40,074 bases of DNA from a virus (IMGVR_UViG_3300029743_000013:1-40074); one strand, 5' to 3'. Positions 3,891 to 10,278 are shown, counted from the stretch's first letter. The notes: generated from the sequence alone by a model not told the origin. Program-made: numbers and translations.

Positions 3891-4313
3891 ATGCAAATGA
3901 ACATTCAAGAGGTGTGTAGAATCCGCAAAGAAGAATTGAAACTGACCTATCAGGACATTTCCGACACTTCCGGCGTACCGTTGTCCACCGTGCAGAATTT
4001 CTTTTCCAAGTTTTCAAAGTCGCCGTCCATTTACACTGTCGCGCCGATCTGCAAGGCAATGGGCATATCCCTTGACGAGACGTTCGGGATTTCCGAACAC
4101 CTGACGCCGACCGAGGAAACTTTGCAGGCGCGGAATGATGAGCTGGAACGCCATGTTGACGCAAAAGCAGACATGATCGAGATCATGCGGCGTGGAGTGC
4201 GTATCCGCAACGGCGTGATTGCTATAATGTTTTTTATAATTGTTCTTCTCGCTGCGTGGTGCGTGTACATTGATTTTCATTGTATAGATTACGGATTTTG
4301 GAGGGGGATTTGA
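3891..4313 (+). CDS. membrane-anchored HTH (XRE-like) protein
   Basis: ATG 3891 (or 3897) after GGAGA..AAGGTG. N-terminal HTH LTYQDISDTSGVPLSTVQNFFS, a coiled-coil stretch, and C-terminal TM VIAIMFFIIVLLAAWCVYI. The stop TGA shares a base with the integrase ATG. Confidence 0.75.
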   Translation: MQMNIQEVCRIRKEELKLTYQDISDTSGVPLSTVQNFFSKFSKSPSIYTVAPICKAMGISLDETFGISEHLTPTEETLQARNDELERHVDAKADMIEIMRRGVRIRNGVIAIMFFIIVLLAAWCVYIDFHCIDYGFWRGI

Positions 4314-5641
4314 TGATAGCGGCATTGATGAGAGTGGCTTTGATAAGAGTGGCTTTGTATATCCGCGTCTCAAGCGAAGAACAGGCGCGGCATGGCCTGT
4401 CCCTGCAAGAGCAGCGGGACGCGCTGATAAGATATGCAAAAGCAAATAAAATGACCGTGGTGGGCATATATGAGGACGCGGGAATATCCGCGAGAAAGCC
4501 GTATAAAAAGCGTCCGGCGCTCCTGCGACTGCTGGGCGATTGCAAAGACGGTAAGATAGACATGATTCTGTTTGTCAAACTTGACCGCTGGTTTCGCAAT
4601 GTCGCGGGGTATTACGATGTACAAACACAGCTCGACCAGTACGGCGTAACATGGCAAGCGACGGAAGAAGATTACGAAACACGGACTGCTTCAGGGCGTT
4701 TAAAGGTCAATATTATGTTGTCAGTCGCGCAAGACGAGGCCGACCGCACAAGCGAACGAATCAAATTTATCAACGATGGAAAACGGGCAAAAGGACAACC
4801 GGCAGGCTCAAAAGCGCCTTTAGGGTATGTCATCACGGACAGGCAATACCAGATTGATAACGGCACGGTAGATGCAGCGCGAGATATGTTCGCCGCGTTC
4901 ATCCGGCTAAAAAGCGTCCTTGCCGTAAAGCGATATATGCTTGACACATGGGGCATTGACCGGGCTTATAGCAAGTATGTAAACTATTTCCGCAACCGTC
5001 TTTACATCGGCGAGGTTTACGGCATCGAAAATGCTTGTCCGGCGTTGGTTAGTAAGCAAGACTTTGACATTGTAAATGATATTATTCGCCAGCGGTCACA
5101 ACGCTGTGCGGGAGTTGACACAGACCGCGTGTATCTGTTTTCCGGGATACTGCATTGTAAAGAATGCGGGAAAACGATGCAATCGGAAACCGTAAAGAAG
5201 ACATATACATATTACCGATGCCGGACTCGGATGCTTGATAACACCTCTTGCCCTCACACAAAAAGGATACGAGAGGATGTGTTGGAAGACTACCTACTAC
5301 ACGAGCTTGCTGGAATCGCAGAGCGGAACAATAGGTACTACAAAAAGGCCGAAAAAAAGCCCACGCAAAGCGCGGACTCGATACGAAAGAAAATGAGCAA
5401 ACTAAAAACGCTATACCTAAACGATTTGATTGAGCTTGACGACTATAAAGCGGAATACTCGATCTTGAAAAGATCCCTCGAAACCGTGGAGGAAACGCCG
5501 AAGACAGACCTCGACGCCTTGAGAAACGGGCTGGGCGAATATGGCACATACTCTCGGGAAGAAAAAAAGGAATTCTGGACGCGCTTCATCAAGCGGATTG
5601 ATGCAGACAACGATGGCGCGTTTTTCGTAACGCCGCGTTAG
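4313..5641 (+). CDS. int: large serine recombinase (phage integrase)
   Basis: Resolvase-type N-terminus ALYIRVSSEEQ, a recombinase domain, zinc ribbon CKECG..YYRCRTR..CPH, and a C-terminal coiled coil. GGAGGGGG sits 6 nt before ATG 4313. Confidence 0.92.
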   Translation: MIAALMRVALIRVALYIRVSSEEQARHGLSLQEQRDALIRYAKANKMTVVGIYEDAGISARKPYKKRPALLRLLGDCKDGKIDMILFVKLDRWFRNVAGYYDVQTQLDQYGVTWQATEEDYETRTASGRLKVNIMLSVAQDEADRTSERIKFINDGKRAKGQPAGSKAPLGYVITDRQYQIDNGTVDAARDMFAAFIRLKSVLAVKRYMLDTWGIDRAYSKYVNYFRNRLYIGEVYGIENACPALVSKQDFDIVNDIIRQRSQRCAGVDTDRVYLFSGILHCKECGKTMQSETVKKTYTYYRCRTRMLDNTSCPHTKRIREDVLEDYLLHELAGIAERNNRYYKKAEKKPTQSADSIRKKMSKLKTLYLNDLIELDDYKAEYSILKRSLETVEETPKTDLDALRNGLGEYGTYSREEKKEFWTRFIKRIDADNDGAFFVTPR

Positions 5642-5680: not shown

Positions 5681-5681
5681 T

Positions 5682-5717
5682 AAAAAATCCCCCGCCGTAA
5701 ATGACGGGGGATTTTTT
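5682..5717. terminator. bidirectional rho-independent terminator between convergent int and late/accessory genes
   Basis: atcccccg (5687-5694) pairs with cgggggat (5705-5712), with an A-run before and a T-run after. Confidence 0.85.
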
Positions 5718-6030
5718 ACCTATCGAGTTTACGCATGACGCTGTTGTAGACACGCTCGTTAACAACTTTCAAACTGTCCATCAGTTCGTCCATAACCGCC
5801 CATGCCACACTTGGCTCAACAGCTGATACGGCCCGCAGAAAGTCGCTGTCGCCGAAAACTTCAACCGGTGCAGGAGCGGCGGAATACAGCATTGGCGACA
5901 TTTTGTCGTTAACGTCGTTTTGCTGGTTAATCACCGTATACAGCACGGCAAGGCGTTCATAGTTTGTCCAGCTGGACTCTTCGGTTTCTAACCGCGCTAT
6001 CCACCTTTTGATCTCGGTCTCATCAATCAT
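5716..6030 (-). CDS. hypothetical protein (last gene of accessory cluster)
   Basis: ATG 6030 after AAGGGGG gives MIDETEIKRWIARLETEESSWTNYERLAVLY... The longer track ORF to 6099 overlaps the upstream gene and lacks an RBS. Confidence 0.65.
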   Translation of the reverse strand: MIDETEIKRWIARLETEESSWTNYERLAVLYTVINQQNDVNDKMSPMLYSAAPAPVEVFGDSDFLRAVSAVEPSVAWAVMDELMDSLKVVNERVYNSVMRKLDR

Positions 6031-6037
6031 GGGGCGT

Positions 6038-6427
6038 TTACCCCCTTTCGTCCTCCAGCACGTCCATGCAGCGCTGAATGGCGCTTCGGATGGTGTCATC
6101 GTCTGCGCTATCCAGCATATCTTGCAACTGCCGTCTCATTCCGTCGCGTGCGCTGTCGCGGCTGTAATGACCCCGGACATAATGCTTTCGGCTTCTTGCG
6201 TAGGAGCTACCACCTCCGTACTCATCGTGCGGATACCGACGCGGCTGATACCCAGCTCTGGAATAGCCGCCATCTTCCATTGCCTCAATTTTATCCAGAT
6301 TTTTGATGGTGCTTGCCAGTTTGTGCGCGATATCCAGATCACCTGCTCCAAGCTCACCCTTTCTGGCAATTTCATCCAGCTCATCGCAAAGCATATCGCG
6401 CAGCTCATACATAGATTTCATGCTCAT
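6038..6427 (-). CDS. hypothetical protein with Gly/Tyr/Arg/Ser-rich centre
   Basis: AAAGGAGG precedes ATG 6427. MSMKSMYELRDMLCDELDEI...GGYSRAGYQPRRYPHDEYGGGSSYARSRKHYVRGHYSRDSARDG... Confidence 0.7.
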   Translation of the reverse strand: MSMKSMYELRDMLCDELDEIARKGELGAGDLDIAHKLASTIKNLDKIEAMEDGGYSRAGYQPRRYPHDEYGGGSSYARSRKHYVRGHYSRDSARDGMRRQLQDMLDSADDDTIRSAIQRCMDVLEDERG

Positions 6428-6440
6428 GCTTTACCTCCTT

Positions 6441-6863
6441 TCAGCAGACGCGCTCCACGATCATGTTGCTATTGGCAAAGCTGGTCGCCTGAGCGCTGGT
6501 GTTCTCCATCGCTACCGTTACGCAGCAGCCCTTCGGCACGTCCACGTTGGCAGCGACAAAGATGTTAAAATAGTTCTCCACGGCGGCGGGCGTTACTGTC
6601 GCCACGGCGCTGGTCAGCGGCTCTCCGTTGATAGCCAGCGCGGCGGAGATTGCACCCACCGTGCCGCCTGTGGGGATGGCAATGTTTCCGCCGAAGGACA
6701 CGCGGAACCGTGCCTTACACTGGTTTGTCAGGCCGCGCAGGAACACCTGCCCGCTGCCCTCGCGGTGTACGATACAGGATTTGCCCGCAACGGCAGTTTC
6801 CGTCAGCGGTACATTCTGTCCGGCAGGAACAGAAACGATGTTGGTATTTACGTATTCAGCCAA
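6441..6863 (-). CDS. hypothetical protein, possible TNF/C1q-like jelly-roll (BclA-C-terminal/exosporium-like)
   Basis: AAGGAG sits 8 nt before TTG 6863 (track start TTG 6881). The beta-rich sequence ...VFLRGL..ARFRVSFGGNIAIPTGGTVGAISAALAINGEPL... fits the call, but the fold assignment is from memory only. Confidence 0.6.
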   Translation of the reverse strand: MAEYVNTNIVSVPAGQNVPLTETAVAGKSCIVHREGSGQVFLRGLTNQCKARFRVSFGGNIAIPTGGTVGAISAALAINGEPLTSAVATVTPAAVENYFNIFVAANVDVPKGCCVTVAMENTSAQATSFANSNMIVERVC

Positions 6864-6879
6864 AATACTCACTCCTTTC

Positions 6880-6913
6880 AAAATGCAGACGGCGGAGCTA
6901 TTGCCCCGCCGCC
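6880..6913 (-). terminator. terminator-like hairpin
   Basis: On the minus strand, ggcggcgg...ccgccgtc is followed by tgcatttt. It lies between 6974..7678 and 6441..6863. Confidence 0.35.
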
Positions 6914-6973
6914 TTTCAATATCAGCCCGGAGCTGAACAATTTCCGTTTTGGAAATAGATTCCTATGCAGTTG

Positions 6974-7678
6974 TCAGCAGCCGGAGCAGCCGGAGCAGCC
7001 GGTGTAGCTGCCAGCCCACGGGTTGCAGGATGCATATGCCGGGATGGGCGTCGGCCGCAGCTGGGAGATCAGGTAGTTGTTCTGCGCAGCCTGAGACGCG
7101 GCCAGACGCAGCTCCTGATTTGCGCTCTCCAGATCGCGCATCTTGGAGTTGGTCAGGAAGTCCAGGATGGCGCGGCTATTGGCGTTCTGGTTCTCCACGA
7201 TGTCGCGGGCGGCGTTCTGCACGGTGTTCCGCGTGTCACACGCCTGCGTCGCCATGTCATAGCGCACCTGCGCAACGGCGGCTCTGTTCTCGCAGCAGCA
7301 GTTTGCCGCCTGCATCTGCATAGCGCTGAGCTGCTGCATCAGTGCGGCCTGCTGGTTGGCGCGGGACAGCTCGGCATTGCCGAATCCAGTCAACAGCGTG
7401 TTGTTCACGGCATAGAAGCCGTCGCACAACCCGTTATTGATGATATCCATCTTGCGCTCGATGTTGGAGAAGTCGGAGGCCAGCACATAGCCGTCCACCA
7501 CGCCGCCGGAATTGCCAGCGTTGTTGCCCCAGCCGTTGCCGCCCCAGCCGCAGAACGCGAACAGGAACAGGATGATGAGGAACCACGCGCCGTCACCGCC
7601 AAAGCCAAAGCCGTTACCGCTGCCATTGGCAGGGGCCACAGGCATGGTCATGGTGGGCATACCCTCGGAAAGAGACAT
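6974..7678 (-). CDS. Gly-rich membrane protein with Gln/Asn-rich helical region and Cys-rich tail
   Basis: AAGGAG sits 7 nt before ATG 7678. NGSGNGFGFGGDGAWFLIILFLFAFCGWGGNGWGNNAGNSGG, then ..AANCCCENR.., ending GCSGCSGC (9-nt repeat at 6975-7001). Confidence 0.75.
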   Translation of the reverse strand: MSLSEGMPTMTMPVAPANGSGNGFGFGGDGAWFLIILFLFAFCGWGGNGWGNNAGNSGGVVDGYVLASDFSNIERKMDIINNGLCDGFYAVNNTLLTGFGNAELSRANQQAALMQQLSAMQMQAANCCCENRAAVAQVRYDMATQACDTRNTVQNAARDIVENQNANSRAILDFLTNSKMRDLESANQELRLAASQAAQNNYLISQLRPTPIPAYASCNPWAGSYTGCSGCSGC

Positions 7679-7773
7679 AGTATCACTCCTTTTTATTGAT
7701 GTAATTTATCTGAATCGCGGCCACGATCAAGAAACAAGTTATGTTTCGTCTTGTGTTTTTGCTTAGACTTTGC

Positions 7774-7974
7774 TTATTCCATCAGACTTTGAAATTGCTT
7801 CGCCATCTGCTGGAGCTGGTTCAACTGCTGCTGCGTGAGCTTGCCGCTTTGCAGCAGTTTCTCCACCTCTGCCTTGGGGTCGCCCTGGAAATTCGCTTTG
7901 AACTGTTTGAACTGCTGCACCATCTGCATAAAGCCGTTGCCGCCGCCCATTGCCCCGAAAAACGGATTATTCAT
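7774..7974 (-). CDS. 66-aa Gln/Lys-rich protein
   Basis: MNNPFFGAMGGGNGFMQMVQQFKQFKANFQGDPKAEVEKLLQSGKLTQQQLNQLQQMAKQFQSLME. The ATG overlaps the end of the upstream gene. Confidence 0.7.
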   Translation of the reverse strand: MNNPFFGAMGGGNGFMQMVQQFKQFKANFQGDPKAEVEKLLQSGKLTQQQLNQLQQMAKQFQSLME

Positions 7975-8377
7975 CGCTCTTTTCCTCCTTGCGCTTCTTG
8001 CCCTTCATTTCGCTCACAAGCGCCGCCAGCGCGTCGAACTCCTTACGGGTCACATATTCCGCAGCGGGCGCTTTCTGCGTATCAGGAGCGCTTGCAAGCC
8101 GTTCCACAAGGTCATACACCTTGAGCGTCGGCTTGCCGCTTGCATCGGCTTGTTTCAGATACACCGTTGGCGCCGTCGAATCCCACAGCGCCACCGCCGC
8201 ATTGGGCGCGACCATCCAGCTTCTTGCCTCCTGTTCGCCGGATACCCACTGCACGCCGCTCTGCGGCAGAGGATTTTGCGGCATCGGCGGAATGGTTTGC
8301 ATCTGCTGCTGCCTCAGCTGGGCGAGGTTGTCCTGCATCGGCGGCATATAGGGGTTTCCATAGTAGGGGTAGTTCAT
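7967..8377 (-). CDS. Pro/Gln/Tyr-rich N-terminus protein with Lys-rich tail
   Basis: MNYPYYGNPYMPPMQDNLAQLRQQQMQ... ...MKGKKRKEEKSDE. ATGA overlap with the upstream gene. Confidence 0.75.
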   Translation of the reverse strand: MNYPYYGNPYMPPMQDNLAQLRQQQMQTIPPMPQNPLPQSGVQWVSGEQEARSWMVAPNAAVALWDSTAPTVYLKQADASGKPTLKVYDLVERLASAPDTQKAPAAEYVTRKEFDALAALVSEMKGKKRKEEKSDE

Positions 8378-8757
8378 GCTTCATCCGTCCTTTCCCAATA
8401 ATACAAAACTGTTTCGTTGCTGCTGTCCCAGCTGTCATATAAAACACCATCTTGTACACACACGACATGACCGGAGAGCGCGAGAATATACGTCCCAAAT
8501 GGGTGCTCATCGGCAAAACGGCCAACTGTGTAACAATCAGGACAGGTATCCGGCACGATGTACCGTCGGAAACCTACCGACCGAAGATAAGCGCCCCAGC
8601 AGGAGTTAGCCGACGGCATATCCCCGTCAAGATATCCCTGTACGCAAAGCCGGAGGTACGTCTCACCCCAGTCCTTGCCAGTTGCTTTTGATATGGCTCT
8701 GACGGTACAGTCGCCTACGTTTTTACCTCGTGGGTTTTCATTGTAGTAGCTATACAT
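8374..8757 (-). CDS. putative papain/transglutaminase-like Cys-His-Asp protein
   Basis: ATG 8757 gives MYSYYNENPRGKNVGDCTVRAISKATGKDWGETY...ALSGHVVCVQDGVLYDSWD. The Cys/His/Asp spacing suggests a thiol-enzyme fold (inference). Confidence 0.7.
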   Translation of the reverse strand: MYSYYNENPRGKNVGDCTVRAISKATGKDWGETYLRLCVQGYLDGDMPSANSCWGAYLRSVGFRRYIVPDTCPDCYTVGRFADEHPFGTYILALSGHVVCVQDGVLYDSWDSSNETVLYYWERTDEA

Positions 8758-8899
8758 ATTCGCGCCTATCGTCGTGGAAAAGCTCCACGATGCGCACAAG
8801 GAAAAGCAATCCAGCAAAGTCCGCTCCGTATTGGTCGCATATATCCCGCGCCATATCCGCCGTATACCCGCACGTCAGCAGCCGATCCATTACACTCAT
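8750..8899 (-). CDS. 49-aa hypothetical protein, first gene of accessory cluster
   Basis: ACAGGGGGTG precedes ATG 8899. MSVMDRLLTCGYTADMARDICDQYGADFAGLL... Confidence 0.55.
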   Translation of the reverse strand: MSVMDRLLTCGYTADMARDICDQYGADFAGLLFLVRIVELFHDDRREYV

Positions 8900-8932
8900 T
8901 TCGACACCCCCTGTATATCTCACAACATACAA

Positions 8933-8975
8933 TAAAAAAGGCCCAACAAAGAGCCTGAAAAAGGTCTTTGTTGGG
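8933..8975 (-). terminator. rho-independent terminator after the late operon
   Basis: cccaacaaaga (8942-8952) pairs with tctttgttggg (8965-8975). On the minus strand it is followed by CCTTTTTTATT. Confidence 0.8.
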
Positions 8976-8983
8976 TCTTCTAT

Positions 8984-9280
8984 TTATGGGTTTTTGATAT
9001 GGTCGGCAATCTTTTGGTAACCGTTGCGGCGGCACTTCTTGACATACTCGACCGACGAAAACAGCCTGTTTGCCACCTGCTGGCGGGATTGTTGCTTAAC
9101 GTCGCACGCGATGATGCAAAACGCCTCGTCTCCCGGAAGCTCAAGCGCGGCAACGTAATCAATGGCGCGTTGCGGGGACATACTGCGCAGTCTTGCGCGG
9201 ATGTCTCGGTAAGTTGTATTCATGGCGATCATATTCGCCGTGGACTTGCGGAGCTTTGGTGGAAGCAGGGGTCGGCGCAT
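8984..9280 (-). CDS. sigma-70 region-4-like HTH regulator
   Basis: LELPGDEAFCIIACDVKQQSRQQVANRLFSSVEYVKKCRRNGYQKIA resembles a region 4.2 HTH. ATG 9232 is an alternative start. Confidence 0.65.
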   Translation of the reverse strand: MRRPLLPPKLRKSTANMIAMNTTYRDIRARLRSMSPQRAIDYVAALELPGDEAFCIIACDVKQQSRQQVANRLFSSVEYVKKCRRNGYQKIADHIKNP

Positions 9281-9353: not shown

Positions 9354-10046
9354 TTACACCCCCAGCAGCTTGCCCCACGTCCCCTTCCCGGCGATGCCGT
9401 CAGCGCCGAGATTATATGCGGTCTGGAACTTCTTCAAGGCGGACTCCGTGCCTGCACCAAAATCGCCGTCAGCACCGGCCGCGCCGCAGGAGAACCCGTA
9501 GGCGATCAGCGCCGCTTGCAGGGTCTTCACGTCCGCGCCATCCATACCGCGCTTGAGCATCCGCACCTTCATGTACAGTTTCGTGGTCTGCACATCGGGC
9601 GCAGGGGCTGCCGTGCCGTAGGCGATGACGTCAAAGGGGAAATACGTACCAGGGCACCCCGTGGCGTTGACATCGCTGTGCTTCTGCACTTTTCTGATGC
9701 CGTACTTCTGCTTGAGATACGCCACCAGCTCCGCGCCTGCCTGCCGCTGGACCGCCGGCATCTGCTCCGACATGAAATTGCCCTCGAAGCACACACCGAT
9801 GCTGTCGTAGTTGTTACTGCCCGCATGGGCACCCAGCACGTCCTCCGGCCTGCCGCGGTAGATGGAGCCGTCCTTTCGGACAAAAAAGTGGTAGCCGATG
9901 CCCGCCCAGCCATTGGCCAGGTGCCAGCTGTGGATCTGCTGGGCTGTGCAGGTCTTGGCGGCGGCGTGGTGCAGGATGATCCTGGTCGTGGACTGGCGCT
10001 TGACCAGCGTACCGCCCCAACGGTAAGTAGTCTCAATGATTCTCAT
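9354..10046 (-). CDS. endolysin: N-acetylmuramoyl-L-alanine amidase (Amidase_2/PGRP) plus PG_binding_1 domain
   Basis: IILHHAA..IHSWH..GWAGIGYHFFV..CFEGNF..H..CPG is the amidase part. The C-terminal GADVKTLQAALIAYGF..DGDFGAGTESALKKFQ is the PG-binding domain. ATG 10046 has GGTGG 6 nt upstream. Confidence 0.92.
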   Translation of the reverse strand: MRIIETTYRWGGTLVKRQSTTRIILHHAAAKTCTAQQIHSWHLANGWAGIGYHFFVRKDGSIYRGRPEDVLGAHAGSNNYDSIGVCFEGNFMSEQMPAVQRQAGAELVAYLKQKYGIRKVQKHSDVNATGCPGTYFPFDVIAYGTAAPAPDVQTTKLYMKVRMLKRGMDGADVKTLQAALIAYGFSCGAAGADGDFGAGTESALKKFQTAYNLGADGIAGKGTWGKLLGV

Positions 10047-10278
10047 TATCATCCACCATGCCTTCCGTCTCGACCGGCACGCCCTTGTTGTACTGGGCCG
10101 TGCTGATGCCCAGCAGGGCGCCCAGCAGCGCCGTCACGGCGGAGATGGTCATCGCCACCTGCTCGGCATAGGGCCATCCCCAGACAGGTGCCAGCGCCAC
10201 GTAACACGCGCTCAGCGCTGGCAGTGCAATCATGACGATCCATTTCAGGATGTCGTATACCTTGTTGTTCAGTTTCAT
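10033..10278 (-). CDS. holin (Dp-1/LC3-like)
   Basis: ATG 10278 after GGAAAGGA. MKLNNKVYDILKWIVMIALPALSACYVALAPVWGWPYAEQVAMTISAVTALLGALLGIS has two TM segments. It overlaps the lysin start. Confidence 0.85.
   Translation of the reverse strand: MKLNNKVYDILKWIVMIALPALSACYVALAPVWGWPYAEQVAMTISAVTALLGALLGISTAQYNKGVPVETEGMVDDNENH

Follow-up and report, generated by a model that had tools for sequence, protein, structure and literature searches.

We analyzed a block of genes on the minus strand of a 40,074-bp virus record (IMGVR_UViG_3300029743_000013; hereafter "the window", that is, the whole record, which is complete with terminal repeats). The block consists of eight genes, here named g1 to g8, and a ninth gene, ahead of g1, for a helix-turn-helix (HTH) regulator. 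The reading that we favor, to which we assign a probability of roughly 45%, is that the block is a mobile, self-contained accessory module carried by temperate phages whose hosts are gut Clostridia of Oscillospiraceae type, that it encodes a membrane-anchored stalk-and-knob structure, and that it belongs neither to the virion nor to the core lysis machinery. That nine genes are conserved together, with a regulator of their own and with control elements in both RNA and DNA, implies strong selection for a function that has no name in current phage biology.

A scan of viral contigs with g6 confirmed at least 576 relatives, and we analyzed synteny in 80 relative loci that were fetched and in 15 distant g6 loci (several counts below are given over 92 loci). 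In the 80 fetched loci, the order g2-g3-g4-g5-g6-g7 is constant wherever the locus is long enough, and this core order was seen throughout the ~100 related loci covered. Synteny of g3 holds in 86 loci, g8 is present in 68 of 92, corresponding to most of those that reach that far, and the regulator stands ahead of the cassette in 44 of 92. The 15 distant relatives (~45% identity in g6) all keep g5-g6, and most also keep g7 and g2. The flanking endolysin, holin, tail, and integrase genes, by contrast, are often unrelated between carriers, and the g4/g5 and g5/g6 borders are the only places where insertions are found. In Dulem virus 33 (L001), a PGRP-type lysin and an integrase flank the same block; L084 has portal and prohead-protease genes directly after g7; and in L087 and L093 the block is preceded by a tail-fibre gene and followed by an exonuclease gene, then a terminase gene. 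The fixed core order amid unrelated neighbors, including portal, terminase, and polyvalent-protein genes, points to a self-contained mobile module. Recombination also occurs within the block: between L002 and the window, g3-g6 are 97-99% identical, g2 is 63% identical, and g7 is 42% identical. No lytic-only carriers were found, and a tyrosine integrase is present in each of the three distant records that are near-complete. The Oscillospiraceae are an abundant, poorly cultured family of the human gut, in which the module travels as a unit among unrelated temperate phages.

Some carriers have further genes in or beside the cassette. In Dulem virus 33, an opposite-strand homing endonuclease (9644-10195) is inserted at the g4/g5 hot spot. 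Between g4 and g5, L098 (1587-4576) encodes a Big_3/LamG fibre-like protein and a CotH kinase homologue, and L092 (2851-4497) encodes a GDSL/SGNH esterase. In L119-L121 (1087-8397), a giant polyvalent protein is encoded directly upstream (2436 amino acids (aa) with ART-PolyVal in L119 and L121; 2734 aa with LPD3/PBECR5 in L120), and the L121 cassette lies in a 396-kb bacterial contig, beside an insertion-sequence element and a gene for a small acid-soluble spore protein (SASP).

A first-pass annotation, made from the sequence of the window alone, had called eight genes here, and all eight open reading frames (ORFs) prove to be real. PHROG families of unknown function are matched by six of the eight (E 7e-12 to 4e-59), g1 has homologues, and selection on g2-g8, the seven genes measured, is purifying (dN/dS 0.09-0.32). 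The descriptions of product composition in that annotation were likewise accurate. None of the eight window products has a match in Pfam, NCBIfam, or PADLOC, and PDB sequence and profile searches with g1, g2, g5, g6, and the regulator returned nothing. Apart from the unnamed PHROG families, these direct family searches yielded no identity.

Reading along the minus strand, g1 (8750-8899) has a Shine-Dalgarno sequence and an ATG start, encodes a 49-aa helical mini-protein, and has a stop codon that overlaps the start of g2 (8374-8757; 127 aa; PHROG 3754, 1.9e-38). An ATGA overlap joins g2 to g3 (7967-8377; 136 aa; PHROG 21718, 6.8e-30; dN/dS 0.25), which is followed by g4 (7774-7974; 66 aa, with a Gly/Met-rich head and Q-rich helices; PHROG 22984, 4.3e-23; dN/dS 0.17), g5 (6974-7678; 234 aa, Cys-rich and helical; PHROG 16490, 6.2e-42), g6 (6441-6863; 140 aa, with a TTG start at 6863; PHROG 20016, 4.3e-59), g7 (6038-6427; 129 aa; PHROG 28802, 7.3e-12), which always comes directly after g6, and g8 (5716-6030; helical; dN/dS 0.24), which starts at an ATG at 6030, 7 nt past the g7 stop. 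The g8 product has 104 aa rather than 127 aa; its homologues begin at MxDExE. Within g1-g4 and within g6-g8, genes are coupled through overlaps of 4-8 nt or gaps of 7-13 nt, whereas a 95-nt spacer lies ahead of g5 and a 110-nt structured spacer with a terminator lies ahead of g6. The eight genes are therefore not the one tightly overlapped, coupled block that had been described. Because a conserved dyad and a conserved three-hairpin terminator element (both described below) separate them, they form not one operon but three units, g1-g4, g5, and g6-g8, each having its own control elements.

The knob of the proposed structure is g6. A beta-rich, jelly-roll-like protein had been predicted among the products, and an AlphaFold2 (AF2) model of g6 (pLDDT 92.5) indicates a jelly roll of TNF/C1q type (SSF49842), for which Foldseek gives a probability of 1.0 and TMq of 0.71-0.77 to 9h38, 1wck, 3twi, 7r1m, 8d02, and 9h3d. 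The nearest solved structures are the C-terminal domains (CTDs) of F-BclA and BclA and the protein ExsFA/BxpB; next come TNF ligands, C1q-like domains, Pgp3, and phage fibre or spike knobs (9eul, 8ke9, 9k09). At the level of sequence, Pfam BclA_C (PF18573) is matched weakly by 4 of 27 g6 family members (best E 8.7e-5); the window g6 has no Pfam match at E <= 1, and a search of PDB with the g6 family profile found no BclA chain. Clustering at 50% identity gives 736 g6 clusters, of which the ones listed have the size of stand-alone proteins, ~70-200 aa. At 90% identity, g5 and g6 each have at least 8000 matching clusters, and, among the matches listed, these are unnamed or called "hypothetical protein". 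The g6 gene is the most constrained of the block (dN/dS 0.09; 81% mean column identity; an invariant CC pair), which is the opposite of what is expected for a receptor-binding knob and fits a conserved partner.

The match to phage knobs raises the question of whether g6 is carried on the particle, as the knob of a side fibre or as a decoration. The Big_3/LamG fibre-like and SGNH proteins inserted in some cassettes would suit such a virion accessory. However, because the virion modules of the carriers, both tail and head, are unrelated, and because g6 varies least of all the genes, a receptor-binding or decoration role is unlikely. The module has to be either self-contained or directed at a host feature that is conserved. 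In addition, g6 has no N-terminal attachment domain, g5 bears a strongly hydrophobic helix, and both the lysis genes and a terminator precede the block. We consider a virion accessory very improbable; as the first-pass annotation had supposed in setting these products apart from virion proteins, they are not tied to a particular virion, since flanking structural genes differ between carriers.

The stalk of the proposed structure is g5. In the g5 proteins, a conserved N-terminal peptide is followed by a Gly-rich segment, a single hydrophobic helix (~residues 32-46), and a Cys-bearing helical domain in which CCC is invariant and other Cys are conserved; a PxPxPAY motif and a Cys-Gly tail of variable sequence complete the layout. 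No match was found for g5 in PDB, in NCBIfam (searched with 20 family members), or in PADLOC. No obvious signal peptide was seen in any product of the block when the sequences were read directly.

The smaller products are helical or small-domain proteins. In g3, g4, g7, and g8, the low-complexity parts are P/Q/Y/M-, G/M/Q-, or Y/S/R/G-rich: g3 has a P/Q/Y/M-rich head, a small beta domain, and a helical basic/acidic tail, and g7 has two helical ends that flank a disordered Y/S/R/G/D-rich center. Homologues of g1, of 40-49 aa, carry the motif RLLxxGFTxQMAxDI in 23 distinct loci and have no PDB or Pfam match; a UBA-like (ubiquitin-associated) identity, suggested by the motif, was dropped after a PDB profile search gave nothing significant. 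In L079 (6394-7041), g3 and g4 are fused in one 216-aa ORF. In L019, L031, L034, L036, L040, and L072, g7 and g8 stand in one frame with a single stop between them (...EG*RGC.PMVDE...), a junction that, from its sequence, is possibly a read-through fusion; in the window, unlike in those loci, g7 and g8 are in different frames.

A Cys-His-Asp enzyme-like protein had been described among the products, and for g2 the description is upheld as to fold. The AF2 model of g2 (pLDDT 93.8) is a papain-like helix-plus-sheet fold in which the residues of a candidate triad, D16/C17, H97, and D108, are invariant in 20 sequences; C17 opens a helix (17-26), and H97 adjoins a strand (98-102). Against PDB, the best E is 0.18, with weak matches to Josephin-2 (TMq 0.48, probability 0.54), PaTox, TssM, and MCF, and Pfam gives no match for g2. 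Against BFVD, there are strong matches to many uncharacterised proteins of phages with very different hosts and weaker matches to annotated proteins, namely a C39-domain protein (E 3.9e-3) and a Josephin-domain protein (2.5e-2). On the strength of the model, we are confident that g2 is predicted correctly as a small papain-like Cys-His-Asp fold of a kind common in phages.

A peptidase with weak resemblance to deubiquitinases, encoded at an accessory site next to the phage attachment site (att) and, in L119-L121, next to injected polyvalent proteins, could belong to a prophage-borne island for anti-phage defense or counter-defense. A search of PADLOC-DB 2.0 with the nine proteins, however, gave 0 matches at E <= 0.1, and no nuclease, NTPase, or sensor domain is present. 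The fixed nine-gene order and strong purifying selection are, moreover, unlike the turnover typical of defense islands. A defense function accordingly seems to us a long shot.

The ninth gene (8984..9280, minus strand) encodes a stand-alone HTH protein of the sigma-70 region-4 or LuxR/GerE type, in an ORF of 98 aa of which the translated part is probably 79 aa, from an ATG at 9223. The window copy is diverged and has no Pfam match, but it aligns throughout with orthologues at 40-49% identity, and among ten orthologues, nine match Sigma70_r4_2 (best E 6.4e-9), eight match Sigma70_r4, and two match GerE. It is through these orthologues that the earlier assignment to a sigma-70 region-4-type HTH is borne out. 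Sigma region 2 is absent: the regulator has ~80 aa, and the region-4 models alone match. In loci without this regulator family, ORFs with region-4-like ends, read from the sequences, lie directly upstream. The late transcript has the regulator as its final gene and is closed by an intrinsic terminator (8933..8975, minus strand), a hairpin followed by a T-run. The strength attributed to this terminator in the first-pass annotation is confirmed by its folding energy (-23.7 kcal/mol; z = -5.2; a value reached by 0 of 200 shuffles), and it keeps the block insulated from the late operon.

A common layout is also seen ~30-120 nt ahead of g1/g2 in L019, L029, L034, L036, and L038, where CACTTT(TC) motifs, a hairpin terminator of variable sequence, and TTTTTTGTACCATAAA follow one another. 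The TTTTTTGTACCATAAA element sits just ahead of the ribosome-binding site and is GTACAAT in L038, and CACTTT(TC) is missing in L029; the window has the upstream hairpin of this layout, but with a diverged flank.

Sigma-70-like promoters scoring at least 9 of 12 are absent upstream of g1, g5, and g6, in agreement with the earlier statement that the block has no recognisable sigma-A promoter. Patterns like the -10 elements of sigma-E and sigma-K (CATA...TA), sought by eye ahead of the same three genes, fit in some loci but are not conserved. The spacer ahead of g5 contains a perfect 14-bp dyad, ATCGTGGCCGCGAT (7714..7727), ~40 nt upstream of g5 and followed by an A/T-rich, -10-like stretch; this is its sole full match in the window. 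In 20 relatives, a dyad occupies the corresponding site, with arms that vary (CGTGGCCACG, CGTGCGCACG, TCCGGCCGGA) and a center that is always self-complementary. Because the arms differ while the self-complementary center stays, the dyad looks like a DNA operator and not like an RNA hairpin, and the region-4 HTH protein is a candidate to bind it. The dyad also overlaps a weak promoter-like site, TTGATC-16-TAAATT, ahead of g5.

The spacer between g5 and g6 contains a three-hairpin intercistronic element directly before the g6 ribosome-binding site (6879..6956, minus strand; -38.5 kcal/mol; z = -3.7), comprising hairpins P1 (6940-6956) and P2 (6922-6936), terminator hairpin P3 (6887-6914), and a T-run (6879-6883). 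In 28 sequences, 7 of 15 predicted pairs in P2 and P3 keep pairing through changes on both sides; P1 differs in sequence, yet forms a hairpin in every locus. No Rfam family covers this spacer. The element could be a regulated attenuator that sets the ratio of g5 to g6.

According to the stalk-and-knob reading, the products of the module would be made and assembled in the host cytoplasm, as suggested by the lack of an obvious signal peptide. The single N-terminal hydrophobic helix of g5 would enter the membrane, g5 would form a Cys-rich helical stalk, and its Pro-rich C-terminal tail (PxPxPAY and Cys-Gly) would dock a trimer of the TNF-like knob g6. The docking step is modeled, by analogy, on ExsFA/BxpB trimers, which clamp Pro-rich exosporium leader peptides (ExsF-leader crystal structure; PMC12357932). 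The putative enzyme g2 would trim or cross-link a low-complexity partner (g3, g4, the g5 head, or g7), the HTH protein would act at the dyad, and the spacer terminator would set the stalk-to-knob ratio. The complex would act on the host cell, at the cytoplasmic membrane or the forespore membrane.

Several observations weigh against this reading. The charges that flank the hydrophobic helix of g5 leave its orientation unfixed, and neither g5 nor any other cassette protein has an NCBIfam match to the exosporium leader (TIGR03720). Folds like that of g2 also occur in phages of Gram-negative hosts, so that g2 may have a generic phage role. Finally, in four distant loci (L091, L092, L096, and L098), an ORF of 130-132 aa lies between g5 and g6, the L098 copy of which matches Phage_holin_4_1, and in L098 an endolysin lies just ahead of g2; because holin and endolysin are interleaved in this way, the module could share its expression with lysis genes and take part in lysis.

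The setting of the block in the window bears on the same point. Along the minus strand, tail genes that match Prophage_tail and BppU_N (Pfam) are followed by a holin of Dp-1 type (10033-10278), an endolysin (9354..10052; Amidase_2 3.4e-22 and PG_binding_1 9.8e-18; PHROG endolysin), which is the last recognisable late gene, the 98-aa ORF, the hairpin with its T-run, and the eight ORFs down to 5716. On the plus strand, a serine integrase (4280-5641; Resolvase/Zn_ribbon_recom) converges on the end of the block. A hairpin terminator common to the cassette and the convergent integrase gene lies between them (5681..5718; -25.3 kcal/mol; z = -5.95; a self-complementary match), and this inverted repeat adjoining the integrase gene folds as a strong bidirectional terminator.

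The block is thus co-oriented with the late genes and directly downstream of them, and the regulator ends the late transcript, as would be expected for a very late lytic module that is switched on by the late HTH protein and acts at the membrane around lysis, in holin timing, envelope preparation, or superinfection block. The g5-holin-g6 order in four distant loci (a family match in L098; same-sized ORFs in the other three), the endolysin that adjoins g2 in L098, and the apparent character of g5 as a small single-pass membrane protein with a coiled-coil-like domain are all consistent with this. Lysogenic conversion, suggested in the first-pass annotation from the position of the block between lysis cassette and integrase, is not established by this evidence: the interleaving with holin, endolysin, and fibre-like genes in distant relatives, or a position there before portal or terminase genes, fits late lytic expression at least as well. 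Nevertheless, a complete holin-endolysin pair is already present upstream in the window, a strong terminator separates the module from the lysis genes, nine conserved genes far exceed the needs of known Gram-positive lysis accessories, and the module is also found apart from lysis genes, either after polyvalent proteins or with fibre-like genes on one side and portal or terminase genes on the other. We therefore regard a late lytic role as unlikely; if a role in lysis or exclusion were true, the module would represent a new class of Gram-positive phage membrane machinery.

The nearest structures of g6 suggest a different destination, the spore. Under GerE-like regulation in the mother cell, the module would lay down a membrane-anchored, cross-linked stalk-and-knob layer on the forespore, changing adhesion, germination, or phage carriage. 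Besides the exosporium proteins nearest to g6 and the weak BclA_C matches of some family members, this possibility draws on a jelly roll like those of spore-surface proteins accompanied by several Cys-rich products, without an obvious signal peptide. Coat proteins are likewise made without a signal peptide. Compositions rich in G/Y/S/R, in P/Q, and in Cys recall those of coat proteins, the L098 cassette carries an inserted CotH kinase gene, GerE is matched by two of the ten regulator orthologues, a SASP gene flanks the L121 cassette, and the block is terminator-insulated and near att. The likeness to spore-coat and exosporium proteins that had been proposed from composition is therefore retained for the fold of g6 and, weakly, for BclA_C in 4 of 27 members, but not for the exosporium leader, for YjcZ-type sporulation membrane peptides (which neither the window protein nor 20 members of the g5 family match), or for any coat family. 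Nor was a conserved sigma-E or sigma-K promoter pattern recognised upstream of g1, g5, or g6; holin and endolysin genes are interleaved in distant relatives; and TNF-like knobs are found on phage fibres as well (9eul, 8ke9).

The hosts do not decide the matter. Contigs of carrier genomes are labeled Oscillospiraceae, Clostridium sp. CAG:413, Lawsonibacter, and unclassified Clostridia. In the host order, g6 is found in 8 of 401 sampled genomes, compared to 1 of 400 genomes, with a weak match, elsewhere in the phylum. SpoIVA is present in 12 of 12 tested host genomes that carry g6 in a Clostridia background, and Spo0A is present in 5 of 5 tested; however, 361 of 401 genomes of the order (90%) have SpoIVA anyway, and the association with sporulating hosts is therefore uninformative. 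A metagenome-assembled genome (MAG) labeled "uncultured Alistipes sp." (L108, genome G406), which has the module on a 40.7-kb contig, was unusable as evidence of a Bacteroidota host because it also encodes SpoIVA; the bin is probably contaminated or mislabeled, and MAG labels are unsafe for host calls here. A "Collinsella" match is an 8-kb contig.

Weighing both sides, we doubt that the module modifies the spore surface, and the corresponding picture of a portable kit, in which a BclA_C-like knob and a membrane anchor, together with low-complexity matrix proteins, an enzyme for processing or cross-linking, and a regulator like GerE, build an exosporium-like layer on host spores, is in our judgment equally doubtful. 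A literature search on phage-encoded exosporium or spore-coat modules found no description. If the kit were real, the spore surface itself would undergo lysogenic conversion, a kind of phage function that is as yet undescribed, and a module that modifies the cell or spore surface would bear on the transmission and persistence of gut spore-formers and their phages.

Comparison with known systems places the favored reading, a mobile membrane-anchored stalk-and-knob module, among several precedents, each of which it resembles in part. The block shares with prophage moron or lysogenic-conversion cassettes its position between lysis genes and att, its insulation by a terminator, and its carriage by unrelated temperate phages; it differs in having nine co-conserved genes, internal control elements, thousands of variants, and other genome positions, and in having no toxin, defense, or metabolic domain. 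Its regulator, of ~80 aa and mostly HTH, stands ahead of its presumed targets, as do GerE/LuxR-type and region-4-only regulators of phages and spore-coat genes, but the window copy is too diverged for either Pfam model. The fold and the invariant Cys, His, and Asp of g2 are those of small papain-like peptidases and their relatives (C39-like bacteriocin-leader peptidases, Josephin-type deubiquitinases, and transglutaminase-like enzymes); g2 is smaller, at 127 aa, and has no significant PDB or Pfam match.

The closest structural parallel is the Bacillus exosporium nap (the ExsFA/BxpB trimer with the Pro-rich leader of BclA or F-Anchor, and the CTDs of BclA and F-BclA), with which g6 shares the same jelly roll, in a stand-alone protein of ~140 aa that has no obvious signal peptide, and the neighbor g5 ends in a Pro-rich peptide and is Cys-rich, like exosporium basal-layer proteins. 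Against this, the identity of g6 to the nap proteins is just 8-14%, the phage module has no collagen-like partner (GXY repeats in 0 of 8 products) and no TIGR03720 leader, its partner g5 is helical and apparently membrane-anchored, its genes are phage-borne in Oscillospiraceae, and seven further genes have no exosporium counterpart. In TNF-superfamily ligands and Chlamydia Pgp3, an N-terminal anchor or stalk carries a trimeric TNF-like head, an arrangement that g5 and g6 together would reproduce, and the fold of g6 matches EDA, 4-1BBL, C1QTNF5, and Pgp3. In the phage module, however, stalk and head are separate genes, with no obvious secretion signal and no detectable sequence relationship to those proteins. 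The module offers a clean test case for a split TNF-like knob and membrane stalk outside eukaryotes and Bacillus spores.

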